DNA from: Candidatus Poribacteria bacterium
GTDB lineage: Bacteria; Poribacteria; WGA-4E; WGA-3G
Length of the DNA stretch: 64,000 nucleotides
Reading direction: 5' to 3'
Assembly (NCBI GenBank): GCA_965215265.1
Contig: OZ244048.1
Span: 3,168,001-3,232,000, forward strand
The notes beneath the pieces are model-generated. The model was not told the DNA's origin and made no database searches. It saw nothing but the letters and a program-made list of their open reading frames with translations. Below are positions 13,989 through 26,581 of the stretch, piece after piece (the first letter of the stretch is position 1; each line of letters opens with the position of its first letter). Position numbers and translations under genes: made by a program.

Positions 13989-14735
13989 TTAGCCATGAAT
14001 AGCATCAGCGAACTGTTTCATCAATTCAAAGGATCTATTTCCTTCAAGCACATTGCCTGTGACGATGAAATCGGCCCCTGCGTTTACTTTTTCGGAAGCG
14101 ATTTCTGGTGTTTGAATGCCGCCTCCAACAATCACTGGAATGCTCACTTGCGTTTTTATAACAGAGATAATCTCATTGGGTACCGGATGTTTAGCCCCGC
14201 TCCCCGCTTCTAAGTAAACTAACTGCATGCCCAGGTACTGGGCGGCGAGTGCATGTGGCACCGCAATGTCAGGCTTATCGCGCGGAATCGGCATCGTCCC
14301 GCTCATAAATTCAACAGCCGTACGGTTACCGCCCTCAATGAGTATATAGCCAGTAGGGATAGGTTCCAAGGCGTAACGCTGGATCCACGGTGCTGCTTTG
14401 ACCTGTTCAGCGATAAGATAATTTGGGTTGCGCCCACTGATGAGACTCGTATACAGAATCGCGTCTGCGTGTGGCGTGAGGTGCATCGAATCCCCTGGGA
14501 AAAGAACAATAGGAACGGATGTTTCCGTTTTTAACGCTTGTGCAACCGCGTGCAAATCGCACGTTAAAAAGCTCCCACCGAGTAAAATTATATCTGCGCC
14601 TGCCTCTTCAATGTCGCGTGCAAGTTTCGCGCACTTTGCAACCTGACAACTTTCCGGATCGATGAGAACAACATAGCCGGCGCTATATTTATCAAGTGTC
14701 TTATGGAAGTGGCTAAGAACCCAATCTGATATCAA
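13989..14735 (-). CDS. Geranylgeranylglyceryl phosphate synthase (GGGPS/PcrB family, group II-like)
   Basis: LIDP, GGS, FPG, ADAIL..SLISGRNP.YLI, PTGYILIEG, YLEAGSGA, VGGGI and GAD.IVTGN motifs. Confidence 0.9.
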   Translation of the reverse strand: MISDWVLSHFHKTLDKYSAGYVVLIDPESCQVAKCAKLARDIEEAGADIILLGGSFLTCDLHAVAQALKTETSVPIVLFPGDSMHLTPHADAILYTSLISGRNPNYLIAEQVKAAPWIQRYALEPIPTGYILIEGGNRTAVEFMSGTMPIPRDKPDIAVPHALAAQYLGMQLVYLEAGSGAKHPVPNEIISVIKTQVSIPVIVGGGIQTPEIASEKVNAGADFIVTGNVLEGNRSFELMKQFADAIHG

Positions 14736-14871
14736 ATCTAAACTGTCCTTAGAGGTATACGCTTAAAGGTATTTCCGCTGAAATGCCGAGCGATTTTCAG
14801 GCGAAACGTGTCTAATCCGAGCACCGGCAGAGGATGTTGTTTTAACCCCGACTCAAAAACTCTACTTAATT

Positions 14872-14900
14872 ATTTTACTACATTTCTCGTAAATTGTCAA
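14872..14900 (-). promoter_or_regulatory. sigma70 promoter upstream of GGGPS-grpE-dnaJ-prmA
   Basis: Minus strand TTGACA-17 nt-TAAAAT. Confidence 0.65.
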
Positions 14901-15004
14901 ATTCCAGCAGTATTTAGGCGTGCTCTTTTACGAACGGATTGCTTGCATCCACTGGGCCGCATCGCTTTCTGCCGCTTATCACGCTGCCATCGCATGCCGC
15001 TATT

Positions 15005-16201
15005 TTAAAGCCAGCCTGCTAAAATCAAGTGGCGCAGCTCAAGAAGCAATTGCGGTTGATGTCTTAATATTATTGTAAAAACTCGTCTCAATGTCATTTC
15101 TTGGGTTGGGATTTGAGAGAGGGTTTCTGCCCATCCATCTATATCATCGTCGCTAAATTTGTACATCCTGTCTCGGATACGACAGATCGCTTTAAAATTT
15201 TTACCAATCTCGCTATCCCACCGTTTGGGGTATGCGCTGAGCACGTTTGTGGAGACATCCCTGCTGCGGATAGCTTCTACGGCGACTTCTGCAGCGAATT
15301 TTCCGGAGTGCATCGCGTTCGGAATACCGCCTCCAGATATCGGATCGCTGTGATGTGCAGCATCTCCCACAAGCATGATGCCGTTTCCGATAATTTTTGG
15401 AAGTCCTTCTCCTACTGGTACTGCACCGCAAACCAACCCTAAAATTTTACCCTCCGGGAATTTGCGTTTCACAAACTCATTTAAGTAGTCTATTGCGAGT
15501 TTACCACTTCTGCCGCCCGAAAGTGCACCGTTGATGCCAATCCCGACGTTGGCGATGTTATCGCCTTTAGGAAACATCCATACATAGCCCCGCGGCGCGA
15601 CTTGGCGTCCAAAATAGAGGTCAAAATATGTCGGATCTATATCAATGTCTCCAAGAAGGTACTGAGCACAGATACCGACATCGTGCAGCGAGTGGGTGGT
15701 ATCAATGCCAGCCCACCGGCCGACCTGGGATTCAACCCCGTCTGCTGCGATAACGACCTTTGATTTGCAGGTATATTCTCGCCCTGAATATCTAAACACA
15801 ACCCCGTCAACGGTGTCATCATCCGATTTGGTAACCTGTGTCACACGTGCTTTCACTATCACCTCTGCTCCAGCAGTTGATGCCATTTCTGCTATAACCC
15901 GGTCGAAAACTTTTCGCTCAAGGACGTAGCCCGGTTTTGGCAAATGAATCGGGACTGCGGTTTCGTTCGGTGAAAACAGGCGGGCCCCTGGAATTTTGCA
16001 CGACACCCAGGCCGGATGCGGTTGAAGAAATTTGCACAGATCCTCTGTGCCTATGCCCTCCGCTCAGCGGATAGGGGTACCGATTTCTTGACGTTTCTCC
16101 AGCAGTAGCACCCGCAAGTCGTTTTCAGCAGCGACTTTCGCGGCAATGGAACCGCCCGGGCCGGCACCGACAACAATCACATCGTACTCAGAATGTCTCA
16201 T
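15005..16201 (-). CDS. Digeranylgeranylglycerophospholipid/geranylgeranyl reductase with an in-frame TGA at codon 46 (candidate selenocysteine)
   Basis: AGGAGG RBS and ATG at 16201; [18 protein letters not shown]...[18 protein letters not shown] continues in frame into the 15005-16006 ORF; [13 protein letters not shown] and GDAA...PISGGGI motifs. Confidence 0.88.
16034..16050 (-). promoter_or_regulatory. Bacterial SECIS-like hairpin downstream of the in-frame UGA
   Basis: Minus strand GCACAGA-GGA-TCTGTGC; a 7-bp stem starts 14 nt after the UGA, with a G-starting loop about 21 nt after it. Confidence 0.6.
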
Positions 16202-16262
16202 TCTACCTCCTATGGAAACCGCTTTTCCAAATTATTCTAAAAACTGCGTCTTTTGTCTCTAA

Positions 16263-16481
16263 TTAGAAAAGACCTCGCCCTGGGTACTCCGGATAGTAGA
16301 TCTTACCATTTCGTTCCATAGCCAGTACACCAACCGGACAGCCCTTCACGCACTTCATACAATCAATACACTTCGGCTGATCTATTTTTAAGTGTGTATC
16401 TACTAACTCAATGATATTTTCTGGGCATACAGCAACGCAGGCACCACAATAGACGCAGAGTTCCTCGTTAATATGAATCAT
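16263..16481 (-). CDS. 2x[4Fe-4S] ferredoxin
   Basis: AAGGAG RBS; CVYCGACVAVCP and CIDCMKCVKGCP. Confidence 0.93.
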   Translation of the reverse strand: MIHINEELCVYCGACVAVCPENIIELVDTHLKIDQPKCIDCMKCVKGCPVGVLAMERNGKIYYPEYPGRGLF

Positions 16482-17850
16482 TTTTAAGTTCTCCTTCGAG
16501 AGATAAAGGTTTGGCAACTGATTGGGACTGTTTATGCCGTACTAATTCATAGAGCAAAACGCCTGCGGCAACGCCTACATTGAGTGAAGATTGCCCGGCT
16601 GCCATCGGAATTCGGACCAAGTTCGGACATTGCTCACGCGTTTCTGCCGACAACCCTACGTTTTCATTTCCGACAATGACTGCAGCAGGGAGGTTAAACG
16701 TTGTGGAGTACAGCTCCTGTTCGGCACTCGCAGTTGCACCGAGTAGGAACCCGCCTGCTTTGTGCAATGTCTCAAGAACGGTTTGCAAATCTTTTGTATA
16801 GAACAAAGGCAAGCGGCCGACAGCTCCGCGTGCAGCACGAATACAGTTTTTATGAAAAGGGCTTGCTCCTTCGCCACTTAGTAAAACCGCGGATACACCT
16901 GCTGCATCGGCTGTTCGCAGTGTCATCCCTAAATTATCAGGATTCCCAATATTTTCCGTGATAAGCAACGTGCAGCCTGGGCTAAAATGAAAATTGAGTC
17001 CTCCGAATTTAGACAACGCATTGCGATAGGTGAGCTGCACCGAAGCAACGACTGATGGGACAGGCCGCGTTGTCGTAACCGAGCCCATCACGCCATCGCT
17101 CACTTGATAGTAGGGTAGATGCTCGGTATGGGCTTGTTTTAGGAGTGCAGCCCCGGCTCCGTGCTTCACAAGTTTTGGTGTATACAGCACTGTGTCAATG
17201 GGGAGCCCGTCATCAATCGCACGTTTCACTAACATCCGTTCTTCTACAATAAATCCGGAGTGTTCAAGTTTACCCTTCAAAGAAGTTAATTTGCGAAACT
17301 GCGATGTAATCGCATCCTTCCGTTTGGAAACAACTCGCTTTTCTAAGCGGGGGCTGCCGGTCAACGCCCCGCGTTTGATACCTCTATAAACCTGTTTTCT
17401 CTTCGGCTGAGCCTTGTCCTGTTTTTCGACCAGTTCTGCTGTTCGTTCGAATGAGGTTGTATGAATGTTGACAATTGTGCCTTCTAAGACTTCTGTTAAG
17501 GCATTGTACATCCATTTTGCTTGAACGTGAAACAGCCCGGTATATTGTCTTGGGAAAGTGAGTAGGAGCTCCCGCAAAGCCCTTTCGGTTGTTGCAGTGA
17601 GAGATACATAATACTCAGAAGCGGAATCTTGAGCTGAGGACACGTCTACCGGCGACATCAACATGACACCATCTAAATTCTGCCATCCTGCAACGCTAAC
17701 ATTATACGGAATGTGCCATTCACCGGTTTTGAAAAATGAGTGGTACGCTTGTTTGAAACGGTACACTGCGGCAGCATCCGTGCACTCTTTTTCCAAGAAG
17801 GCGATAACCTTGTCGTAGTTTAAGGGTTTAGCATCTATTAACATTGGCAT
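16468..17850 (-). CDS. TrmH/SpoU RNA 2'-O-methyltransferase with an unknown N-terminal extension
   Basis: NPDNLG...RTA.AAG, VGNE..GLS and IPM....SLNV SPOUT motifs. Confidence 0.85.
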   Translation of the reverse strand: MPMLIDAKPLNYDKVIAFLEKECTDAAAVYRFKQAYHSFFKTGEWHIPYNVSVAGWQNLDGVMLMSPVDVSSAQDSASEYYVSLTATTERALRELLLTFPRQYTGLFHVQAKWMYNALTEVLEGTIVNIHTTSFERTAELVEKQDKAQPKRKQVYRGIKRGALTGSPRLEKRVVSKRKDAITSQFRKLTSLKGKLEHSGFIVEERMLVKRAIDDGLPIDTVLYTPKLVKHGAGAALLKQAHTEHLPYYQVSDGVMGSVTTTRPVPSVVASVQLTYRNALSKFGGLNFHFSPGCTLLITENIGNPDNLGMTLRTADAAGVSAVLLSGEGASPFHKNCIRAARGAVGRLPLFYTKDLQTVLETLHKAGGFLLGATASAEQELYSTTFNLPAAVIVGNENVGLSAETREQCPNLVRIPMAAGQSSLNVGVAAGVLLYELVRHKQSQSVAKPLSLEGELKNDSY

Positions 17851-17969
17851 CCCAATCTGGGCCGGTTCAATCGGTTAGGCTTGCAAATCAGAGTGGCAGG
17901 TGCTTATTGCATTCCGCCGGCATAACTATTCCTGCGCATTTGGCTTATACTGGGCTCTCAAGTCCGATA

Positions 17970-18827
17970 CTAAAGTGTTCCGATATAAATTGCACCCAGT
18001 CCAATGAAGATGTCCCACTTCATCCAGCGTTGGATGAAGGCACAGTTTTCTTTAGAAGCATCTCTCCATAACCGAATTCCTAAGCAAATGAGGACCACGT
18101 CCACGCCAAGTACAACAGCGGCTAAATAGAGAGTGGAGTACCACCCATATAGATAAGGGATAGGACTAAAGAGGATGACAGCTGCCATGAAACCTAATGC
18201 TATTTTCACGGCGAGCAGAGGATTGAGAATAGCAAGTGTTTTCACGCCGTTTTTGATGTCGCCTTCTGTATCCTCAATGTCTTTTATAATTTCGCGTGGC
18301 ATGGTAAAAAGAAAAGCAAATATTGCCGGAATGAGCGTTCCTTTCACTGAATCGATCGCTATTCCGCCAGCAATAAAGGTTAACCCAGTTAAGCCGCTGA
18401 CAACTAAATTCCCGATGAACGGTGTACGCTTCAGCCAGAATGCGTAGCAAACAAGGACGATAGAAACCAGCACCGCAATACCTAATGCGTAAATATTGAT
18501 ACACGCGCCAAGTGCTATGCCGATTCCGATCAGAATTATGGCGAAAATCAGCGCAGCACAACGACGGAGTCTACCCGACGGAAGCGGTCTCCGTTTCCGG
18601 TTGATTCGATCTATGTTATAGTCACAGTAGTCATTTATAGCGTTTCCTGCAGAAAGCAAGAAAAGTGCCGAGAATGAAACCAACAAGAGCCGCATGTCTC
18701 CAAGGGTTGTCAATTGGCCTTCGTTAGCAAAGATACCGCCGAGGCATGCAGAAATAAAAGCGATGAGCCCGTTAAGCGGACGTGCTAACTCAACATAAGC
18801 CACGAAGGTTTTGTGTATCGCGTTCAT
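17970..18827 (-). CDS. Digeranylgeranylglyceryl phosphate synthase (UbiA family, DGGGPS-like)
   Basis: ELARP.N, GNAINDYCD...DRIN...RPLPSG, LKR.P..GN and REIIKDIED.EGD motifs; multi-TM; start could be 18854. Confidence 0.85.
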   Translation of the reverse strand: MNAIHKTFVAYVELARPLNGLIAFISACLGGIFANEGQLTTLGDMRLLLVSFSALFLLSAGNAINDYCDYNIDRINRKRRPLPSGRLRRCAALIFAIILIGIGIALGACINIYALGIAVLVSIVLVCYAFWLKRTPFIGNLVVSGLTGLTFIAGGIAIDSVKGTLIPAIFAFLFTMPREIIKDIEDTEGDIKNGVKTLAILNPLLAVKIALGFMAAVILFSPIPYLYGWYSTLYLAAVVLGVDVVLICLGIRLWRDASKENCAFIQRWMKWDIFIGLGAIYIGTL

Positions 18828-18939
18828 CGGACAAAACAAGCGTAAGCCGGACACAGCGTTTATCGCAGCAGATGGGTCCGGAATTTACAGCGGCAAATAT
18901 GCTCAGACTGGCAGCTCCGGTATGCTGTCCTCCAGGGGC

Positions 18940-20010
18940 TTATTCTTCCTCCAATTCCTCAATTTTTGCTTCCAGTTGCTCAACACGTTTTTGGAGTTTA
19001 CTAAGCTCGGGTAAGAGTTCCGGTAGTTTTCGAGTTGCGGCATGAATTCGCAATTCTTGTCGATGTGGGCGTGCTGGGAATCCGGAGAGCCGGCTCCGTG
19101 GGGGCATATCCTTTGTGACAGCGGATTTTGCATAGACAATACTATCCTCACCGAGTGTGAGATGACCTGCCGCGCCTGCGTGCCCTGCTATATCGACCCG
19201 GTCGCCCAGGGTGCTACTCCCGGCTATACCGGCTTGCGCAGCTAGGCGGCAATCTTCCCCTATCACGACGTTATGGGCAATTTGAACGAGGTTATCCAAT
19301 TTGGACCCACGTTTAATCAGGGTTTCGGAACATGTTGCCCGATCAATCGTCGTATTCGCGCCAATTTCAACGTCGTCTTCAATAACAACTGTCCCAATCT
19401 GTGGAATTTTGTGGTGGAGTGGCGCATCTTCGCCGAAAAGACTGCCTGCCGGCGTGAAACCGAAACCGTCGCTCCCGATGACCGCCCCGCAGTGGATGAT
19501 CACCCGGTCCCCGATAGTTACTCGTTCCCGGATGCTAACGTGCGGGTAGATTAACCCGTCCGATCCGATTTTACTTCCTTCCCCAATGTAAACAAACGGA
19601 TGGATAACGGTCTTATCGCCTATTTCGACGTTGTCTCCAATGACAGTAAACGGTTGTATTGCGACATGCTCGCCGAGTTTTACGTTTTTTCCTAAAATCG
19701 CTGTCTCATCAACACCGGGCATCGTTTGATGCTGTTTATCGAGAGAGAACATTTCCAAAACTTGAACAAATGCCCAGTACGGATTCTCTACCCGGATCGT
19801 CGGCTTTCCATTGCCGGAGACACCACGTCCAATGATAATCGCAGCGGCTCGGGTCGTCGCAATTGCAGCAAGATACTTCGGATTTGCAACGAAGGTAATC
19901 TGGTTCGGAAGTGCATCTTTAATTCCTGAAACACCGGTAATCTCAATATCACCATCGCCGGATAGCTCGCCATCCAGTTTTTTACATATATGTTTGAGTT
20001 TCATATACAT
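18940..20010 (-). CDS. lpxD: UDP-3-O-acylglucosamine N-acyltransferase
   Basis: Hexapeptide repeats; GSDGFG, IPQIG.V, IDRA and KLDNLVQIAHN. Confidence 0.95.
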   Translation of the reverse strand: MYMKLKHICKKLDGELSGDGDIEITGVSGIKDALPNQITFVANPKYLAAIATTRAAAIIIGRGVSGNGKPTIRVENPYWAFVQVLEMFSLDKQHQTMPGVDETAILGKNVKLGEHVAIQPFTVIGDNVEIGDKTVIHPFVYIGEGSKIGSDGLIYPHVSIRERVTIGDRVIIHCGAVIGSDGFGFTPAGSLFGEDAPLHHKIPQIGTVVIEDDVEIGANTTIDRATCSETLIKRGSKLDNLVQIAHNVVIGEDCRLAAQAGIAGSSTLGDRVDIAGHAGAAGHLTLGEDSIVYAKSAVTKDMPPRSRLSGFPARPHRQELRIHAATRKLPELLPELSKLQKRVEQLEAKIEELEEE

Positions 20011-20085
20011 ATTTTCGTCTACTGGCGTACCGTCACGCTTTATGCTGTGTGAATGACAGTGTCCAGTTCGTCAGAGCCGCTTTAT

Positions 20086-20111
20086 GCTATGCCTAAGATA
20101 TCTCCGACGAG
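20086..20111 (+). repeat. Dispersed 26-bp repeat, copy 1
   Basis: GCTATGCCTAAGATATCTCCGACGAG; its reverse complement lies at 26860-26885. Confidence 0.8.
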
Positions 20112-20178
20112 ATTTGTAAAGGTTTTAACATTGCAGCAGCCTTTATGGTATTACAGTAGACAAAGGCCTTTCCTCGCC

Positions 20179-20724
20179 TTACTTGGAGTCTTCGTTCATT
20201 AATCCGATTAACCTTTGCGTTAAATCGTGTTTTTCGTCTACATAGAGGGTGATAAGTCGCTTTTCAAAGATGACATCAAAGCCTTCTGATTCACCAATTT
20301 GGCCGATCACAGCGCGAATTTCGTCAAAAATCGGCACCATTAGCTCCTGTTCTTTATCCAGGAGTGCTTGTTGACCTATGTCGACTTCACGTTGGTACTC
20401 TTGCTGCTTGAGGAGAATTTCCTGCTCCAAATCTGCTATCTGTGCATTCTCTACAAAGAGTGCTGTTTTTGTCTTTTTCTCTTGCAGCGTCCGAATCTCA
20501 TCCGCAAGGCTGCCCACCTTTGTCTTCAGACGTTCGCTCGCAGCTGTCAAAAGTGCCTCTGCATCCTTGGCTTTCTTGTAATTCTCAAGCACTTCTTGTG
20601 TATTGACAAAACCCATTTTAAAGGATTCTTGGCTGAGACTGCCTGAGCTTAAACATAAAGAGATAATAGAAATAATTAAGATAAATAGTCGTGCTTTGTA
20701 AGCACCCAACCGAAGTCGTTTCAT
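20179..20724 (-). CDS. skp: OmpH/Skp periplasmic chaperone
   Basis: Signal peptide, KMGFVN start of domain, coiled coil, DLT..I end; located between bamA and lpxD. Confidence 0.85.
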   Translation of the reverse strand: MKRLRLGAYKARLFILIISIISLCLSSGSLSQESFKMGFVNTQEVLENYKKAKDAEALLTAASERLKTKVGSLADEIRTLQEKKTKTALFVENAQIADLEQEILLKQQEYQREVDIGQQALLDKEQELMVPIFDEIRAVIGQIGESEGFDVIFEKRLITLYVDEKHDLTQRLIGLMNEDSK

Positions 20725-20772
20725 AATGTAATCCTCAAAGTCGCCGCATAAACCGACGGTACTCACGTTAAT

Positions 20773-23367
20773 TTAGAAGCCCGGACCGACTGTGAAATGA
20801 AATTTGCCTGCAGGCTCCCCTGTAATCCGATCGAAGCCGTATCCCCAACCGAGCCGAACTAACATGCCAAGCATCGTCAAGCGGGCTTCAGCTCCGACAG
20901 ACCGTTTCATGTTGATATTTGTAAAGACGTTTTTAACACTTTCATCCCAGACTTGGCCGATATCAAAAAACAGGGCTGCTGTCAGCTGCTCAGAGATAGG
21001 GATGCGATATTCAAGATTGGAGTAGAATACCTTATCCCCGCCATGCGGGTTGAAGGTATCCGGATATATCTCCCAGTCCTCGTAGCCACGGAGCGTATCG
21101 ACACCGCCTAGGAAAAACCGTTCGTAAAAAAGGAAGTACGAATCCTTGCTCTTACTCAGCATGTAGCCAGCCCGTGCATGCGCTGCGATAACGTGGTTCC
21201 ACCATGGACTGTAGAACCAGCTTGTATCAGCGGAATACTTCTGGAATTCGTTGTCTGCCCCCAAAATACCTCCGGAATACTCATAAGAAAGCGTGTGCAA
21301 AGAGCCATCTGTCGGATCAAACAGTGAGGTACGGTAGTCGCGTGTATCTCTGGCGACAGCAAACAGAATACTTCGGGTTGATCTGTCAATTAATTGTTCG
21401 TCTGGATTGGATGCTTCAATGTGTTCATTGCGGAAACGCACGGACAGGTCTATATCTTGTGTAATGGGGTGTCCCAACGTCACAGAAGCCCCTCTTCTTC
21501 CCCAGACATACCGGTCGTACAGATATGGGCTACGGATGCGACTCAGTGCAGCCCCAACTGTGCCGTAGTAACGGCGGAATCGCCTGTTATCGTAGAGTCG
21601 CGCGTTCAGCCGGGTCGGTGTCCCTAAAATCCAAGGCATCCCGAAGCTTACTTCCGCTGTGTGATGGTCACGTGTCCCTAATTCCCCTTTTAGGTGCAGG
21701 CGATACGCGCGGCCTCGGAAATTATTTTGTCCTACCTCGGCAACGCCGAAGATACCGCCTTCGCTGCCGTAGCCGCCGCCTAAGCTCAGCATCCCAGTTC
21801 GCGGCGTTTCGGCAATATTAACTCTTAAATCTTTACGGTTCTCATCGGGTGTATCACTCGGTACAAAATCGACAGCTCGAATAAAGGAACCCATTTGAAA
21901 TAAACGCTGCCGTGCTTTCCGCAGCGATTTTACATCTAGAAGCTCATCTGATTTGATGTTTAACCAATTTAACTCGCGTCTAACTACGTATTCCTTCGTC
22001 TTTTCTAACCCTGTAATCACGACGTTATTAATTATGATGACATCCCCTTGATTAATATTCAACGTGATGTTAACTAATCCATTGGCCTCATCAAACACCG
22101 GAATCGGGACAACCTCTGAAAGTAAGTAACCTTTATCAAGATAGGCTTGCTGTAGGTTTGAAATTGATTCATCAAACGTGCCGCGGTTGAAAATCTCGCC
22201 TTCTGCTGGATCCAGCATGTCGCGTATTTTATCTTCCGAAAAGGCGGCTTTTGTCCCTGATTGCACTTCCAGCGTATACGTGCCCATAATAAATTCTGGC
22301 CCCTCGTCAACTTTGATGTCCAAGATTAACCCTGTCCTATCGTCCGTGAATTCTTTTTCATATCCTAAGATTTTCACCTGGGCAAATCCCTTGTCCTGAT
22401 AATAGTTACGGAGGTTGAGACTCAAATCTTCTTCTTCAAACAGGATCTGATCAAAGTGTTTACCCATGCGCGTTTTGAGTTGCTTACGCAATTTTTGCGG
22501 GGGGAGTCGTTCATTTCCGATAAAATTGATTTCCTCAATTTTGACACGGGGGCCCTCATTTATCTCAAACGTGACTTGAATTGTATCATCTCGCGCGGAA
22601 TCTTCTATTGCTGTCTCAAGGTTAGAGTTCTCTCCACTTGTTGGTACAGCAGCCGAGGCACTGTCTTCGGACAAGTTAGGTACTGCAGTGTTTGAAACGT
22701 TGTTCTTTTCCTGCGAATCGGTATCTGTATCATAAAACGGGCGGATGTGTGTTTGGATGCTTACCAGATAGTAGCCTTTTTCGTGGTAAAGCTGCCGTAG
22801 GGCACGTTCGCTTTGCCATCGCTGCCGGTCGCTGTAGATTTCAAATGGACGGATTGTCAATTTATCCTTCAGGTTCCGATTCCCGAGTTCCTCATTGCCA
22901 ATAAAACTGATGCCGCCGATTTTTGGGCTTTCCACAACCTTATAGATAACCTCTAAGCCGCCCCCTTCAAAAGGCTCTACATCTACGGAGAGATCTGAAA
23001 AGAAACCTGTATCCTTATATAGGTTCTCTATATCTTGTGTCAGTAATTCTTCAGAGATTTCCTGCCCGACTTGCGTTTGAATGAGCGTGTGCAGCATGTC
23101 TTCAGACGTAGTTAAGACGCCTTTAAAAGAGATCTTCTTAACGAGGAACATCTCATCAACTTCAGGTTGTGCGGTTTTCGCCTTTGCGTCAGGTTGTTCT
23201 CCGGTATCGTTCTGAGTAGCAGCTTCGCTTTGTGGCTCTGTAGTGCGTTTCGGACCCAATACGGGTACGGCTTGTTCTTCCGCATCCGCTATACTAACAG
23301 GGAGGCAAAATGCGCTTGAAGCTGCAATTATCAAAGCGAAAAGGGTTTTTATTTTTTTCATGTTCAA
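20773..23367 (-). CDS. bamA: Outer membrane protein assembly factor BamA
   Basis: POTRA-like repeats, FFLGG..TLRGY motif, C-terminal Phe. Confidence 0.93.
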   Translation of the reverse strand: MNMKKIKTLFALIIAASSAFCLPVSIADAEEQAVPVLGPKRTTEPQSEAATQNDTGEQPDAKAKTAQPEVDEMFLVKKISFKGVLTTSEDMLHTLIQTQVGQEISEELLTQDIENLYKDTGFFSDLSVDVEPFEGGGLEVIYKVVESPKIGGISFIGNEELGNRNLKDKLTIRPFEIYSDRQRWQSERALRQLYHEKGYYLVSIQTHIRPFYDTDTDSQEKNNVSNTAVPNLSEDSASAAVPTSGENSNLETAIEDSARDDTIQVTFEINEGPRVKIEEINFIGNERLPPQKLRKQLKTRMGKHFDQILFEEEDLSLNLRNYYQDKGFAQVKILGYEKEFTDDRTGLILDIKVDEGPEFIMGTYTLEVQSGTKAAFSEDKIRDMLDPAEGEIFNRGTFDESISNLQQAYLDKGYLLSEVVPIPVFDEANGLVNITLNINQGDVIIINNVVITGLEKTKEYVVRRELNWLNIKSDELLDVKSLRKARQRLFQMGSFIRAVDFVPSDTPDENRKDLRVNIAETPRTGMLSLGGGYGSEGGIFGVAEVGQNNFRGRAYRLHLKGELGTRDHHTAEVSFGMPWILGTPTRLNARLYDNRRFRRYYGTVGAALSRIRSPYLYDRYVWGRRGASVTLGHPITQDIDLSVRFRNEHIEASNPDEQLIDRSTRSILFAVARDTRDYRTSLFDPTDGSLHTLSYEYSGGILGADNEFQKYSADTSWFYSPWWNHVIAAHARAGYMLSKSKDSYFLFYERFFLGGVDTLRGYEDWEIYPDTFNPHGGDKVFYSNLEYRIPISEQLTAALFFDIGQVWDESVKNVFTNINMKRSVGAEARLTMLGMLVRLGWGYGFDRITGEPAGKFHFTVGPGF

Positions 23368-23459: not shown

Positions 23460-24326
23460 CTAGATCGGGGTGCCAGTATTATTCGCTAGCTGCCGAAACG
23501 CGGCAATTAGTTTCTCTGTCACGCTGCCGGGCTGTCCTTTGCCGATAATCCGCTGGTCAATCTTCACAACCGGAATCACCTCTGCCGCTGTACCGGTCAG
23601 GAAACATTCGTCGGCAGTATAGAGGTCATGCCGAGTGAAGACCTGTTCTTTCACCGGCATGCCCGTGGCACGCGCTAATGCGATGACACTATTCCGGGTG
23701 ACACCTTCCAAAATGCCGAGGTGAACCGGGGGTGTCACAAGAACATCGTTCTTCAGGTAAAAAATATTGTCCCCACTACATTCAACAACATAGCCGTCCG
23801 CACTGAGCATCAACACTTCCTCTGCCCCGGCTTGCTTTCCCTCAATTTTGGCTAAGATATTGTTGAGATAGTTCAACGACTTAATACGCGGATTAATCGC
23901 TTCTGCATAATTCCGGCGCACAGATACGGTAACTATATCCAATCCATCTTCATAGAATTTCTGTGGGTAGAGCGTGATTTTATCTGCAATAATAATAATA
24001 GAGGGCTTGGGACATTTATCCGGGTCCAACCCCAAATCCCCTATTCCGCGTGTTACGATCAAGCGAATATAGCCTTCGCGGAGGTGATTTCGACGGAGCG
24101 TTTCCAGAACCGTTTCCTTCATTGTTTCAATCGGCATCGGGATGCGCAGCATAATTGATTTTGCAGAATCGTAGAGGCGTTCGAGGTGTTCATCAAGTTT
24201 AAACACGCGGCCGTTATATGAGCGAATGCCCTCAAAAACCCCATCACCGTAAAGTAGGCCGTGGTCAAACACCGAGACTTTGGCTTCTGCTTTCGGTAAA
24301 AATTCTCCGTCGAGATAAATTAACAT
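23460..24326 (-). CDS. ilvE: Branched-chain amino acid aminotransferase
   Basis: DHGLLYGDGVFEG, KSLNYLNN, ILEGVTR and FLTGTAAEV. Confidence 0.95.
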   Translation of the reverse strand: MLIYLDGEFLPKAEAKVSVFDHGLLYGDGVFEGIRSYNGRVFKLDEHLERLYDSAKSIMLRIPMPIETMKETVLETLRRNHLREGYIRLIVTRGIGDLGLDPDKCPKPSIIIIADKITLYPQKFYEDGLDIVTVSVRRNYAEAINPRIKSLNYLNNILAKIEGKQAGAEEVLMLSADGYVVECSGDNIFYLKNDVLVTPPVHLGILEGVTRNSVIALARATGMPVKEQVFTRHDLYTADECFLTGTAAEVIPVVKIDQRIIGKGQPGSVTEKLIAAFRQLANNTGTPI

Positions 24327-24352
24327 AAACGGTTCCTTCCAAATCAAAAGAT

Positions 24353-25087
24353 TCACGAGCTGTGCGGCGGCAGCTTGGCCGTGTGCTCCTCATGGCTGCT
24401 ACTGATTCTGCCATCAATGAGATGGACGATTCTATCTGCGCGTTCGGCAAGCGCCGGATTGTGTGTCACAATTATAAAGGTTTGTCCTGTTTGTGCATTC
24501 AAATTCCATAATAGTTCCAATACAGCTTCGCTATTACGCCGGTCGAGGTTGCCGGTCGGTTCATCTGCGAGTACGACTTTGGGTTTATTCATGAGAGCTC
24601 GTGCAATCGCAACGCGCTGTCGTTCTCCCCCGGATAACTGGCTTGGATAGTGTTCTAGCCTCTCAGCAAGCCCCACGTAGTCAAGTAGTGCCTGCGCTTC
24701 ATCATAAATACGTTTATTTTCACGCTGCTTCATGCGGATTAACGCACTCATTGCAACATTTTCAACCGCTGTAAACTCCGGAAGCAGATGATGAAACTGA
24801 AAAACAAAACCGAGCCCTTCATTACGAAATTGGGCAAGTTCTCTATCGGGCAAAGCGAAAAGGTTCTGTCCTTCATAAGAGACATGCCCTGCCGTTGGCC
24901 GGTCTAAAGCACCAATTATATGGAGCAGGGTACTTTTTCCGACACCTGAGGCACCTATAATCGCGATTACCTCGGATGCATAAACTGTCAGGTCTACTCC
25001 TCGCAACACGCAGAGTTCCGTTTCCCCATCATAATACGATTTGTGTAAATCTACAATACTGATTAGTGCTTTCAGCGGATCCTGCAC
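24353..25087 (-). CDS. lolD: Lipoprotein-releasing ABC transporter ATPase
   Basis: GASGVGKST, FVFQFHHLL, LSGGERQR and ADEPTGNLD. Confidence 0.92.
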   Translation of the reverse strand: MQDPLKALISIVDLHKSYYDGETELCVLRGVDLTVYASEVIAIIGASGVGKSTLLHIIGALDRPTAGHVSYEGQNLFALPDRELAQFRNEGLGFVFQFHHLLPEFTAVENVAMSALIRMKQRENKRIYDEAQALLDYVGLAERLEHYPSQLSGGERQRVAIARALMNKPKVVLADEPTGNLDRRNSEAVLELLWNLNAQTGQTFIIVTHNPALAERADRIVHLIDGRISSSHEEHTAKLPPHSS

Positions 25088-25120: not shown

Positions 25121-26581
25121 TTATTCATGTTGCAGGGCTTCAACCGGCTTCAGATTTGCTGCCTGCCACGCCGGGTACAACGTTGCGCTCCAGCAAATTA
25201 GAAACGAAAGCGCGTTGATGAAAATGACAAAGAACCAATTCACCTTAATCGGTAGTAGATTCATCTGGTAGATTTGGCTGAGGCCAAGTTCTAAAAGTGA
25301 GATCGGCCGAACTAAGCAGTAAAGCGCGAAGCCGATGCCAACCGTCCATAAGATGCTTAATGCAAATTTCCAGCTTCCACGTTGCTGCACTGTCCGCTGT
25401 AGCGCAATAAATAACTGCAGCAAAATTGGCACGAAGACTACTAGCGCGAACCAATAAGAGGGGCGCGAGGTTGTTGAGCTCAGGAGCCAACAGAGAGCGA
25501 GGCCTAAACCGGTGCCGAACAGCGTCCCAAGCATTCCAATAACGCTGCCCTGAATCATGAAGATTCGTATAATGTTCCCTCGTGAAGAACCGAGAATTCG
25601 CAGTGTTCCGATGTCCTTTGTTTTTTCCATCACGGTCATAATCAGCGTACTTGCGATGTTGAACGAAGCAACTAAAATAATGAGTGCTTCAATAATGACG
25701 GTTGCAACTTTCTCTAGCCGCAGTGCCGCGAACAACGGTGCGTGCATCTGCATCCACGTTCGGGTTATCGGCATCCCTTCTAAAACGGTAAATTCAACTG
25801 TATTTTCAATACGTTTGGCAGCGTGAGGTGCCAATTCAGCGTCAGTTAGCCGTACAAAGATTGCGTTGATGCGCCCGCTTTTGTTGTAGAGTTTTTGTGC
25901 CGCGTCTATATGAACAAACGCGAGGTTACTATCATAAACAGCCAATTCGGATTCATACGTACCGATTACTACGAAGTTAGCAAAGTCTGCAACAAGTGTT
26001 CCCGGATTAAAAGGATGCGGATTAAGTTTGACCACAAGCCGCAAGATATCACCTTTAAAAATGCCTAATCGCTCCGCTAACCGAGTGCCAACCACAATTC
26101 CGCCCGTAATTGTGTTATCGCTCAGAAGTGCTGCCTCTTCTATGTAAGGCGAATTTTTGAAATCTACAGAGCCATTCACAAATGTCGAAAATTCGGTTAC
26201 TTTGTCTTCATGCTCAGGTGCAATGCCCTTTATGTAAATCACGTCTTGAATTGTATTGCTATGTTCCGAGAAAACGCCAATCTGTGAATAAACTACCGGT
26301 GATGCGGCGATAACTTCATCTAGTGCCTCAATTTGTTCTATCCGTTTTTCGTACTCCCCAAAAAATGTATTGCCGTGCAGGAGTAGCACAACGTGTGCTT
26401 CATTAGCCAGGAATCGATGCTTTAACCCATGTTCAACGCCGTTTAAGACAGCAATCACCAAAATGACTGTGGCTACCCCCAAGGCGACACCACCAATAGA
26501 GATGACGCTGATAACAGAAATAAAGGATTGTTTTCGCCGAGACCGGAGATACCGTGAGGCGACAAACCATTCAAATTTCAT
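25121..26581 (-). CDS. lolE: Lipoprotein-releasing ABC transporter permease (LolC/E)
   Basis: FEWFVA.RYLR, V.EK.KDIG.L, YPA..AA...P.EAL. Confidence 0.88.
   Translation of the reverse strand: MKFEWFVASRYLRSRRKQSFISVISVISIGGVALGVATVILVIAVLNGVEHGLKHRFLANEAHVVLLLHGNTFFGEYEKRIEQIEALDEVIAASPVVYSQIGVFSEHSNTIQDVIYIKGIAPEHEDKVTEFSTFVNGSVDFKNSPYIEEAALLSDNTITGGIVVGTRLAERLGIFKGDILRLVVKLNPHPFNPGTLVADFANFVVIGTYESELAVYDSNLAFVHIDAAQKLYNKSGRINAIFVRLTDAELAPHAAKRIENTVEFTVLEGMPITRTWMQMHAPLFAALRLEKVATVIIEALIILVASFNIASTLIMTVMEKTKDIGTLRILGSSRGNIIRIFMIQGSVIGMLGTLFGTGLGLALCWLLSSTTSRPSYWFALVVFVPILLQLFIALQRTVQQRGSWKFALSILWTVGIGFALYCLVRPISLLELGLSQIYQMNLLPIKVNWFFVIFINALSFLICWSATLYPAWQAANLKPVEALQHE

Follow-up and report, generated by a model that had tools for sequence, protein, structure and literature searches.

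The cluster downstream of lpxD

The window analysed here, a stretch of 64,000 nucleotides from a Candidatus Poribacteria genome, holds on its minus strand a run of genes for a UbiA-family prenyltransferase, a SpoU/RlmB-like methyltransferase, a ferredoxin, a GGR and a GGGPS (Table 1). The sequence-only reading had described this run as co-oriented and as directly downstream of lolE, lolD, ilvE, bamA, skp and lpxD; all of its genes are indeed present on the one strand, from the ATG of the UbiA gene at 18827 to the stop codon of GGGPS at 13989, and the upstream gene order was confirmed by Pfam and NCBIfam profiles.

Table 1. Features of the cluster and its surroundings, in order of transcription
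Feature	Positions	Strand	Evidence or remark
FtsX/MacB-type permease (lolE-like)	25121-26581	-	Pfam/NCBIfam profiles; first in transcription order
ABC ATPase (lolD-like)	24353-25087	-	Pfam/NCBIfam profiles
Class IV aminotransferase (ilvE-like)	23460-24356	-	Pfam/NCBIfam profiles
BamA (POTRA + Omp85)	20773-23367	-	Pfam/NCBIfam profiles
Skp/OmpH	20179-20766	-	Pfam/NCBIfam profiles
LpxD, conserved neighbour upstream of the cluster	18940-20010	-	TIGR01853 361 bits (cut-off 242.5); Pfam
UbiA-family prenyltransferase, DGGGPS-like	17970-18827/18854	-	PF01040 147 bits
SpoU/RlmB-like 2'-O-methyltransferase, 460 aa	16468-17850	-	PF00588 117 bits, residues 296-434
2x[4Fe-4S] ferredoxin, 72 aa	16263-16481	-	Fer4 families match
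GGR, archaeal DGGGPL-reductase type, 398 codons	15005-16201	-	Read-through translation; 3oz2; TIGR02032
In-frame TGA (UGA) inside GGR, motif R-U-AEGI	16064-16066	-	Alignment to the Cys of 3oz2 RCGEG
SECIS-like hairpin inside GGR	16030-16054	-	Covariation over 19 orthologues
Promoter-like site, TTGACA-17 nt-TAAAAT	14872-14900	-	11/12 consensus matches; GGR-GGGPS gap
Group II GGGPS, 248 aa	13989-14735	-	PF01884 153 bits; NF003198; TIGR01769
grpE, dnaJ, prmA	after GGGPS in transcription order		Pfam/NCBIfam profiles

This arrangement is not a chance neighbourhood: in 13 of the 19 neighbourhoods of GGR orthologues, drawn from all four families of the order, lpxD is followed by UbiA-[SpoU]-ferredoxin-GGR-GGGPS. 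The count takes in one locus (L045) whose contig ends before lpxD, lpxD being seen upstream of UbiA in 12 of the 19; another locus (L035) keeps the cluster on a contig that begins at UbiA, where lpxD is thus not visible, and is not among the 13. In three families the ferredoxin and GGR genes lie directly between UbiA and GGGPS, and in family f4 the four genes are contiguous. GGR is unlinked from UbiA and GGGPS in five neighbourhoods, all of them from genera g3 and g6. Within the window GGR and GGGPS are separated by 269 nt, and GGGPS may have a promoter of its own in this gap; promoter-like sites in the region number 12, against 10.4 expected from shuffles, and are consensus matches only.

The prenyltransferases, the ferredoxin and the methyltransferase

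The GGGPS is of group II, in agreement with what had been proposed for it: its best solved relatives, those of Flavobacterium (4jej, E 2.5e-54) and Methanothermobacter (4mm1, 2e-50), are far ahead of the heptaprenyl PcrB 4nae (6e-6), and its scores with NF003198 (286; cut-off 247) and TIGR01769 (222; cut-off 161.55) lie above the cut-offs. The assignment of the UbiA protein as a DGGGPS holds only in part. The NCBIfam models that fit it best are without exception DGGGPS models (PRK12884 at 218 bits, PRK12882 at 200 and PRK12883 at 173), the nearest solved structure is that of M. jannaschii DGGGPS (6m31, E 1.9e-37 over residues 17-293, with both Asp-rich motifs aligned), the next being chlorophyll synthase at 6e-7, and quinone-type and heme O prenyltransferases are encoded elsewhere in the genome; its scores are, however, below every curated DGGGPS cut-off (218 vs 269; 200 vs 296). 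Orthologues occur in 38 of the 41 relatives. The frame would give 294 residues from a GTG at 18854 or 285 from the ATG at 18827, the latter, which is also that of the public gene calls, being the likelier start.

The pairing of GGR with a ferredoxin, already pointed out, proved real and conserved. The most likely start of the ferredoxin is the ATG at 16481, giving 72 residues and a 14-nt overlap with the 3' part of the SpoU gene; seven of the 16 orthologue matches in the 19 neighbourhoods begin at the equivalent position and nine begin 1-12 residues further upstream. The protein is 75-96% identical in 12 orthologues, and it shares 47% identity (MAFFT; 43% by tblastn) with a ferredoxin encoded directly upstream of a Cys-containing GGR of Ca. 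Methanoliparum; the latter ferredoxin lacks the roughly 17 conserved residues that extend the C-terminus here. Other Poribacteria records hold proteins of 460-485 aa in which the ferredoxin is fused to the N-terminus of GGR. A small 2[4Fe-4S] ferredoxin gene also adjoins GGR in Methanosarcina acetivorans, where in vivo reduction depends on it (Isobe 2014, as cited in PMC9385802 and PMC10821996), whereas here the host is bacterial and Sec would replace the catalytic Cys. The ferredoxin of the cluster is the proposed electron donor of GGR.

As for the gene between UbiA and the ferredoxin, earlier called TrmH, a SpoU-family methylase is there, but its best score is RlmB-like (TIGR00186, 122.6 bits), which is itself below the cut-off of 160. 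The 188-aa N-terminal part of the protein gave no Pfam match at E up to 0.1. The gene is missing between UbiA and the ferredoxin in all five loci of family f4, and the methyltransferase is probably a passenger in the cluster; having an rRNA-methylase-like gene among the others speaks against the lipid reading discussed below.

The in-frame UGA of GGR

The GGR gene is present and in place, as had been noted, but it is not one ordinary open frame. Under translation table 11 its TGA divides it into an N-terminal piece of 46 codons, with the GxGxxG FAD motif, and one of 352 codons that continues in that frame, the UGA being codon 46 of 398 counted from the Met; the ATG at 16201 is closely preceded by a GGAGG. 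Read through, the gene encodes a full-length GGR, homologous over its whole length to the DGGR of T. acidophilum (3oz2, E 1.1e-73) and to the GGR of S. acidocaldarius (3atq/4opc, 2e-30), with GxGxxG, PxxYxWxFP and the flavin-side residue all aligned, and 48-51% identical to Methanosarcinales-type GGRs; with TIGR02032 the C-terminal piece alone reaches 166 bits (cut-off 158.8). Where the two solved enzymes have a Cys, that of the RCGEG motif in 3oz2, the Poribacteria gene has its UGA. A review describes this residue (Cys47) as one that every archaeal GGR shares and that the S. acidocaldarius enzyme cannot do without (PMC10821996). A UGA at the catalytic Cys codon is the most unusual feature of the cluster, and one that was missing from the sequence-only reading.

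All 21 loci that were checked have the TGA at this codon. Orthologues of 64-100% identity with one TGA were found in 19 of the 41 relatives and, in a search of 176 genomes of the phylum, in 39, including one that also carries a TAG (G141) and one cut at a contig end (G130); all 39 belong to the window's own order. By contrast, the 13 GGR matches that span the site in other orders or classes are all free of stops, and every one of 63 homologues from outside the Sec clade has Cys at this position. In the tree the 20 Sec sequences group together (SH-aLRT 99) within the Cys forms, so that one change of state is needed. The codon is unchanged in contigs of four runs from four studies.

The hairpin begins 10 nt after the UGA and consists of an upper stem of 7 bp (16050-16034), a loop of 3 nt (16043-16041) in which the first G never varies, and two lower pairs. 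Over the 19 orthologues 97.7% of its cells are paired, against at most 59% in slid controls, and three of its nine pairs show compensatory changes on both sides (13 cells); its covariation score of 0.334, compared with 0.199 for shuffles, was reached by none of 500 shuffles. The machinery for Sec is complete in the genome: selA (589 bits), selB (336 bits; cut-off 242), a tRNA-Sec with anticodon tca 49 nt after selB, and selD, which has one TGA within itself. Among the relatives selA is found in 40 of 41, including all 19 with a TGA-containing GGR. The SelB-SECIS mechanism is established in E. coli fdhF. A UGA at the catalytic Cys codon, a hairpin just downstream in the coding sequence and the presence of selA, selB, selC and selD are shared with bacterial selenoproteins that have Cys homologues (e.g., SelD); the family here, GGR, is a lipid-saturating flavoenzyme. 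The combined pattern of codon, hairpin and machinery makes it very probable that this GGR is a selenocysteine enzyme, Sec taking the place of the catalytic Cys.

If the TGA were instead a true stop, GGR would be a pseudogene, or a gene split between a peptide of 46 residues and a C-terminal protein with a start of its own, and no Sec would be involved. In keeping with this, public gene callers give only C-terminal ORFs of 283-346 aa, decayed copies exist in G028 (frameshift and extra stops) and G025 (a remnant only), and the hairpin matches no Rfam family, perhaps only because Rfam has no suitable model of a bacterial SECIS. Against it stand a stop kept at one codon in 39 genomes down to 64% protein identity, the 46 codons upstream of it, which are intact and in frame, its coincidence with an essential Cys, a covarying hairpin at the usual distance, and the complete Sec machinery of the genome; judging from the 3oz2 alignment, moreover, a C-terminal protein lacking the FAD-binding start would be unable to work as a flavoenzyme. 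We consider this the least probable of the readings. Hardly more credible is the insertion of another residue, for instance Cys or Trp, through near-cognate decoding or some local recoding signal that is not a SECIS. Hairpins that follow a stop codon are also able to favor read-through, but the code is standard and TGA an ordinary stop, since it ends 472 of the 2157 long open frames of the genome, and both the invariable Cys outside the clade, a classic Cys/Sec pattern, and the co-occurrence with Sec genes speak for Sec. The selenocysteine GGR would be a form of the enzyme that gene callers shorten. Our literature search found no report of a selenocysteine GGR or of the GGR family as a selenoprotein; the matches listed for selenoprotein and geranylgeranyl concerned mammals and Plasmodium.

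The possible lipid product

The interpretation we prefer, with a probability of roughly 0.6, is that of a conserved archaeal-type gene set for isoprenoid glycerol ether lipids in Poribacteria, with a selenoprotein GGR saturating the chains. The group II GGGPS would form the first ether bond and the DGGGPS-like UbiA enzyme the second, from GGPP and a glycerol phosphate, and the dedicated 2[4Fe-4S] ferredoxin would pass electrons to the FAD-dependent GGR for saturation of DGGGP-type lipids. In the latter, SelB and tRNA-Sec, guided by the hairpin, would decode codon 46 as selenocysteine and so place it beside the flavin, where other known GGRs hold the catalytic Cys. Bacterial CdsA and head-group enzymes would finish the lipid. 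Saturated diether isoprenoid lipids are a plausible product of the cluster, the balance tilting slightly in favor of this.

A genome search for EgsA/AraM, CarS/CdsA and a polyprenyl synthase, suggested earlier, was successful in part: an IdsA/GGPPS-like synthase, dxs and cdsA are present, but CarS was not found and the sole G1PDH-like candidate is weak (125 bits; cut-off 413). Among the 41 relatives the G1PDH-like gene is present in only 19, and its distribution does not follow that of GGGPS. The result for CarS fits the report that E. coli given only the GGGPS and DGGGPS of Cloacimonetes made PG-archaeol without CarS (Villanueva et al. 2020, PMC7852524).

A distinctly less probable reading is that GGR is a selenoprotein and the enzymes are real, but that bulk membrane diethers are not what they make. 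The lipid formed by GGGPS and UbiA could be a minor or specialised prenyl-glyceryl compound, comparable to the PcrB products of Bacillales, which do not rank among the main lipids of the membrane, or the two enzymes could salvage or catabolise archaeal lipids in the sponge, whilst GGR could saturate another polyprenyl compound, e.g., the side chain of menaquinone or a polyprenol. GGR is found in 55 of the 176 genomes of the phylum as opposed to 144 for GGGPS, so that whatever GGGPS and UbiA do does not always require saturation; the unlinked GGR genes of g3 and g6 point the same way, as do the results for CarS and G1PDH and a genome with a lipid A/BamA envelope and four PlsC-type acyltransferases. 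Catabolism of archaeal lipids has been raised for bacteria without G1PDH (Coleman et al. 2019, PMC6431249). On the other hand, the placing of ferredoxin and GGR between UbiA and GGGPS, down to strict contiguity in one family, and the archaeol-type phospholipid made in E. coli by the Cloacimonetes homologues favor diether synthesis, and GGR fits archaeal lipid reductase models (E 7.8e-60 and 3.7e-40) far better than MenJ (2.3e-17) or ChlP (1.1e-18).

The gene set itself resembles those reported for Ca. Cloacimonetes and other FCB bacteria (PMC7852524, PMC6431249), which likewise combine a bacterial group II GGGPS, a DGGGPS-like UbiA and an archaeal-type GGR in MAGs without CarS and without a clear G1PDH. 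Neither paper mentions Poribacteria, which are not members of FCB, in its main text. The Poribacteria genes differ from those sets in that they form a single conserved cluster next to lpxD and include a dedicated ferredoxin, and in that GGR has a UGA/Sec codon rather than one for Cys.

The in-frame TGA codon of the reductase gene

Under translation table 11, the open reading frame of the geranylgeranyl reductase (GGR) lacks about its first 65 residues. When the frame is read from stop to stop, the missing part (a Met, then the GxGxxG FAD motif) appears directly upstream in the same frame, beyond a TGA codon at 16064-16066. The read-through product of 398 codons aligns end to end with the digeranylgeranylglycerophospholipid reductase of Thermoplasma acidophilum (3oz2, E 1.1e-73), and in this alignment the TGA stands at the Cys of the RCGEG motif; i.e., the catalytic Cys (Cys47 of archaeal GGRs, codon 46 here) is not encoded as such, its codon being TGA. 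The read-through protein contains both the FAD motif and PxxYxWxFP, neither of which varies across the alignment. The C-terminal piece alone passes at family level (TIGR02032, 166 against a cut-off of 158.8), and the truncated 333-aa piece, when scored, falls below the equivalog cut-offs of DGGGPL reductases (NF041160, 202.9 against 780; NF041080, 138 against 580).

The codon very probably specifies selenocysteine (Sec), a chemical analogue of Cys, as judged from the reading frame and its homologues: coding is kept on both sides of the TGA, and the UGA stands opposite a Cys in homologues, which is the pairing expected of a selenoprotein gene. The same stop could have come from faulty assembly or from a genetic code in which TGA is an ordinary sense codon. 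Contigs from four sequencing runs, each of a different study, all carry it unchanged, and one of them represents a variant strain that differs at further positions close by, so that it is not an assembly error; and an alternative code is rejected, since TGA terminates 472 of 2157 open frames of at least 300 codons.

Selenocysteine insertion is further suggested by a SECIS-like hairpin (16054-16030) that begins 10 nt past the UGA. Its upper stem has 7 bp; in its 3-nt loop, the first G is invariant and lies 20 nt after the UGA. In an alignment of 19 of the 21 sequences (one identical row and a broken copy from genome G028 being left out), 97.7% of cells are paired, with changes on both sides at three of nine pairs (13 cells). 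At 0.334, the covariation score exceeds the 0.199 of shuffles, and 0/500 shuffles attain it, a count that is not a probability because the sequences are related; slid controls with partners moved by 1-3 columns, which do retain this relatedness, leave at most 59% of cells paired. Rfam, searched at E up to 10 over 15800-16300, gave no family for the hairpin and only a chance lncRNA match. Elsewhere the genome encodes selA (589 bits) and selB (336 bits, cut-off 242), the latter followed after 49 nt by a tRNA-Sec gene (anticodon tca). Its selD gene (G000:C1:4044300-4045226) is itself written with one in-frame TGA, in the usual motif, so the genome has at least two selenoprotein genes.

Sec may be more nucleophilic, have a lower pKa and resist irreversible oxidation, as in selenoenzymes generally. 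If the codon is read in this way, membrane lipid biosynthesis would gain its first selenoenzyme, and GGR would be one member of a natural Sec/Cys pair in which the role of Cys47 in catalysis could be probed; the close sisters with Cys, about 60% identical, would give a handle on proton versus electron transfer by this residue. In the available portions of the GGR review PMC10821996, the role of Cys47 is still only ‘speculated’ and selenocysteine is unmentioned.

Distribution and descent of the two reductase forms

Conservation was followed in a near set of 41 genomes (the window's own and 40 relatives) and a wide set of 176 genomes of the phylum. In the near set, 19/41 genomes have a GGR orthologue (65-100% identity) that carries a single TGA; selA is found in 40/41, including all 19 of these, and its sole miss is an 86%-complete genome without GGR. 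A GGR (E up to 1e-60) is present in only 55 of the 176 genomes, which suggests that the gene was often lost or never gained. The one-TGA form accounts for 39 of those 55, all 39 belonging to the window's order (families f1-f4); one of them, G141, has an additional TAG, and another, G130, ends at a contig edge. No stop interrupts the 13 matches that cover the site in other orders or classes (families f5-f11), and three partial matches (G094, G028, G068) leave the site uncovered. In all 21 excised loci the TGA lies at the same codon, in the context R-stop-AEGI.

On a tree of 84 rows, made up of 20 Sec rows, 63 proteins from databases (each 385 aa or longer) and a single archaeal locus, from which shorter calls and the G028 copy with its frameshift were excluded, the Sec rows form a single clade (SH-aLRT 99) inside the Cys forms, and all 63 site-covering rows outside that clade have Cys at the site. 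One change of state is enough, with the database protein P0076, which begins past the site, left unscored; parsimony and rooting by archaeal sequences point to a change from Cys to Sec. The Sec-GGR, which we hold with high confidence, adds a candidate new selenoprotein family and is the strongest new point of the analysis. Among named records, those closest to the window's GGR come from chromosomes titled ‘MAG: Candidatus Poribacteria bacterium’ (83% and 71% identity). In public protein databases, the Sec-type orthologues are truncated calls of 283-346 aa (283 aa for the window's own), so that surveys of GGR, or of ‘complete’ archaeal lipid pathways, in Poribacteria will misjudge them. Full-length relatives (395-401 aa, 58-63% identity), some of them named Candidatus Poribacteria, have Cys at the site.

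Two genomes hold degraded copies. That of G028 (locus L048) is a decayed Sec-GGR with a frameshift and extra stops, in which the TGA and the hairpin are retained, and in G025 a remnant of about 80 C-terminal codons lies between GGGPS and UbiA.

The gene cluster and its enzymes

The window occupies positions 3168001-3232000 of one 4.83-Mb contig. Open reading frame listing and family scans show a single co-oriented run on the minus strand, with the genes and coordinates that had been read from the sequence alone.

Genes of the co-oriented run, in order of transcription (window positions)
Feature	Position	Strand	Basis
FtsX/MacB-type permease	25121-26581	-	family scan
ABC ATPase	24353-25087	-	family scan
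Class IV aminotransferase	23460-24356	-	family scan
BamA	20773-23367	-	family scan
Skp/OmpH	20179-20766	-	family scan
LpxD	18940-20010	-	family scan
UbiA-family prenyltransferase	17970-18854 (likelier start ATG at 18827)	-	family scan
SpoU-family methyltransferase	16468-17850	-	family scan
2x[4Fe-4S] ferredoxin	16263-16481	-	family scan
GGR	15005-16201	-	family scan
PcrB/GGGPS-family protein	13989-14735	-	family scan
grpE, dnaJ, prmA	after GGGPS in the run	-	family scan

The order lpxD-(insert)-UbiA-[SpoU]-ferredoxin-GGR-GGGPS recurs in 13 of 19 neighbourhoods, from the same-genus G001 (f1) and from f2, f3 and f4, a count that takes in one contig ending before lpxD. At locus L035 (f2), the cluster is kept and the contig starts at UbiA, and in five neighbourhoods of genera g3 and g6 (also f1) GGR lies away from the cluster. 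Dispersed repeats were considered as the origin of the intergenic gaps within the cluster and rejected, 5/5 gaps being unique in the genome. The gap between skp and lpxD (20011-20178) contains a dispersed repeat copy, with 118 blastn-short matches genome-wide, one of them of 147 nt at 96.6% identity.

By family, the last protein of the cluster is a group II GGGPS, a predicted enzyme. It scores above the cut-offs of PF01884 (152.9, cut-off 23.9), TIGR01769 (222.3, 161.55) and NF003198 (286.4, 247), and its best solved relatives are 4jej (FjGGGPS, group IIb, 2.5e-54) and 4mm1 (MtGGGPS, group IIa, 2e-50), the group labels following the accessible part of PMC9385802. The heptaprenyl PcrB 4nae reaches only 6e-6, and no group Ia chain matched at E up to 0.001 among the solved structures; the group II assignment of the sequence-only reading thus stands, and a PcrB-like identity finds no place. 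The same part of PMC9385802 names as hallmarks a conserved Tyr/Tyr/Glu for G1P binding and catalysis, and a Thr in loop beta-alpha-8. In one pairwise alignment, made without Mt numbering, the window's protein equals FjGGGPS at the Tyr of GYILIE and at Y-L-E of YLEAGSG; the same alignment gives Asn in the loop (14009-14056, minus strand), as in group I, versus the group II Thr of FjGGGPS.

The UbiA protein was placed by family models and solved structures. Its top five NCBIfam models are all of DGGGPS type, with the next model, EboC, far lower at 72 bits, and its best solved relative is MjDGGGPS (6m31, 1.9e-37 over the full length; chlorophyll synthase, 6e-7), with which both Asp-rich motifs agree in the printed alignment (the N..D...D and D.ED..GD stretches). 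The genome's quinone-type (MqnP/UbiA-like) enzyme and its heme O synthase are encoded elsewhere. The UbiA protein of the cluster nevertheless falls under all DGGGPS cut-offs: PRK12884, 218.3 (269); PRK12882, 200.4 (296); PRK12883, 173 (353). With these cut-offs missed, and a DGGGPS-like paralogue elsewhere as well, we call it DGGGPS-like and not a proven member, so that of the proposed DGGGPS identity the distance from quinone, heme and chlorophyll types is upheld and the equivalog assignment is not. This paralogue (G000:C1:768708-769634; PRK12884, 127 bits) is more distant, at about 30% identity to the cluster enzyme, and is present in most relatives.

The ferredoxin is the likely reductant of GGR, judging by gene context and precedent. 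It is kept beside GGR, and in f2-f4 the gap from its last sense codon to the start of the GGR match is 2 to 10 nt (2 nt in 8/13 loci); it resembles a ferredoxin directly upstream of the Cys-GGR of Ca. Methanoliparum (47% identity in alignment, 43% by tblastn); in other Poribacteria a ferredoxin is fused to the N-terminus of GGR; and the GGR of M. acetivorans requires its neighbouring ferredoxin, as cited in the portions available of PMC9385802 and PMC10821996. The 23 fused proteins are one clade (support 100); those among the database proteins P0082-P0120 measure 460-485 aa, have Cys at the catalytic site and are in some cases named Candidatus Poribacteria by NCBI. At their C-terminus, Poribacteria ferredoxins share a conserved tail (about 17 residues, the last four RGLF; 16263-16320, minus strand in the window), which is missing from that of Ca. 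Methanoliparum and may serve for docking. A 496-aa B12-binding/radical-SAM-type gene (locus L028, 3863-5353), possibly a tetraether-synthase-like neighbour, lies immediately before the archaeal ferredoxin-GGR pair; a tblastn search of the window's genome gave no close homologue (best, 25% over 166 aa, E 1.5e-5). No lipid role is evident for the SpoU/RlmB-like methyltransferase (460 aa), the first 188 residues of which give nothing in Pfam at E up to 0.1. In f3 relatives the match to it begins only near residue 170, and the f4 clusters lack the gene.

A predicted route to saturated ether lipids

In the route that we propose, GGPP would come from the MEP pathway and a GGPP-type synthase, GGGPS would etherify glycerol phosphate, the UbiA enzyme would attach the second chain, and CdsA with bacterial head-group enzymes would complete the phospholipid; reduced ferredoxin would then serve the FAD of GGR, and the double bonds of the chains would be hydrogenated, with Sec46 beside the flavin in the role of Cys47. 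The sequence-only reading had noted G1P dehydrogenase, CarS and GGPP synthase as absent from the window. In the genome, cdsA and two polyprenyl synthases, one IdsA/GGPPS-like, are encoded elsewhere, as are dxs and four PlsC-type acyltransferases, but CarS was not found and the G1PDH-like candidate is weak and patchy. PlsY (PF02660) was not found in this search either, which leaves the first acylation step of bacterial phospholipids unaccounted for in it. Of five Fe-ADH_2 matches, four belong to ordinary alcohol dehydrogenases or to AroB. The fifth (G000:C1:495403-496410), a 335-aa G1PDH/GldA-like protein next to a PD40-repeat protein and an M19 dipeptidase, has archaeal G1P dehydrogenase as its best model (125 bits, cut-off 413); it was rejected as a demonstrated G1PDH partner, being far under the cut-off and found in 19/41 relatives, among them G009, which has no GGGPS. 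According to the available text of PMC7852524, the gaps at CarS and G1PDH are likewise reported for Cloacimonetes, and their GGGPS and DGGGPS still yielded PG-archaeol in E. coli.

Saturated diether isoprenoid lipids are, by a narrow preference, what these gene assignments lead us to expect as the product of the cluster. The ether-lipid module first proposed keeps its group II GGGPS, a UbiA protein nearest to DGGGPS and a conserved ferredoxin-GGR pair, and is weakened by the missed UbiA cut-offs and the lack of CarS in the genome search. The fuller interpretation, to which we give a probability of roughly 0.45, is a selenium-dependent saturation of archaeal-type ether membrane lipids across a whole order of Poribacteria, by a ferredoxin-driven GGR with Sec instead of the universal catalytic Cys, derived once from Cys forms and placed in a conserved four-gene cluster of a diderm, lipid A-bearing, non-FCB bacterium. 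Many genomes of one order have the genes in a tidy cluster, which makes them easy to test in a heterologous host.

Bacterial sets of GGGPS, DGGGPS and GGR are already known in Cloacimonetes and FCB from what is available of PMC7852524 and PMC6431249, the main texts of which do not mention Poribacteria; NCBI taxonomy has the latter as a separate candidate phylum, outside FCB. Among the records returned, a literature search joining Poribacteria with geranylgeranylglyceryl or ether-lipid gave nothing about lipid genes and one mention for cell compartments. In the entries retrieved on geranylgeranyl reductase and selenocysteine, co-mentions were incidental and no published selenocysteine GGR was found; selenoprotein and geranylgeranyl together brought mammalian or Plasmodium papers among the matches listed, and the Poribacteria-selenocysteine literature, as far as returned, includes Sec hydrogenases. 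Automatic public names already read DGGGP synthase or DGGGPL reductase for some Poribacteria proteins.

If the assignments hold, exceptions to the ‘lipid divide’ would be widened to another bacterial phylum, in which GGGPS is a phylum-wide trait (144/176 genomes, 28/31 genera). Of the 41 relatives, 38 have GGGPS and 38 the UbiA orthologue; G009, G032 and G038 have neither. GGR is patchy where GGGPS and UbiA are nearly universal, a pattern suggesting that sponge-symbiont lineages are set apart by saturated versus unsaturated ether lipids or by differing uses of them. In genus g11, GGGPS itself occurs in only one of 20 genomes.
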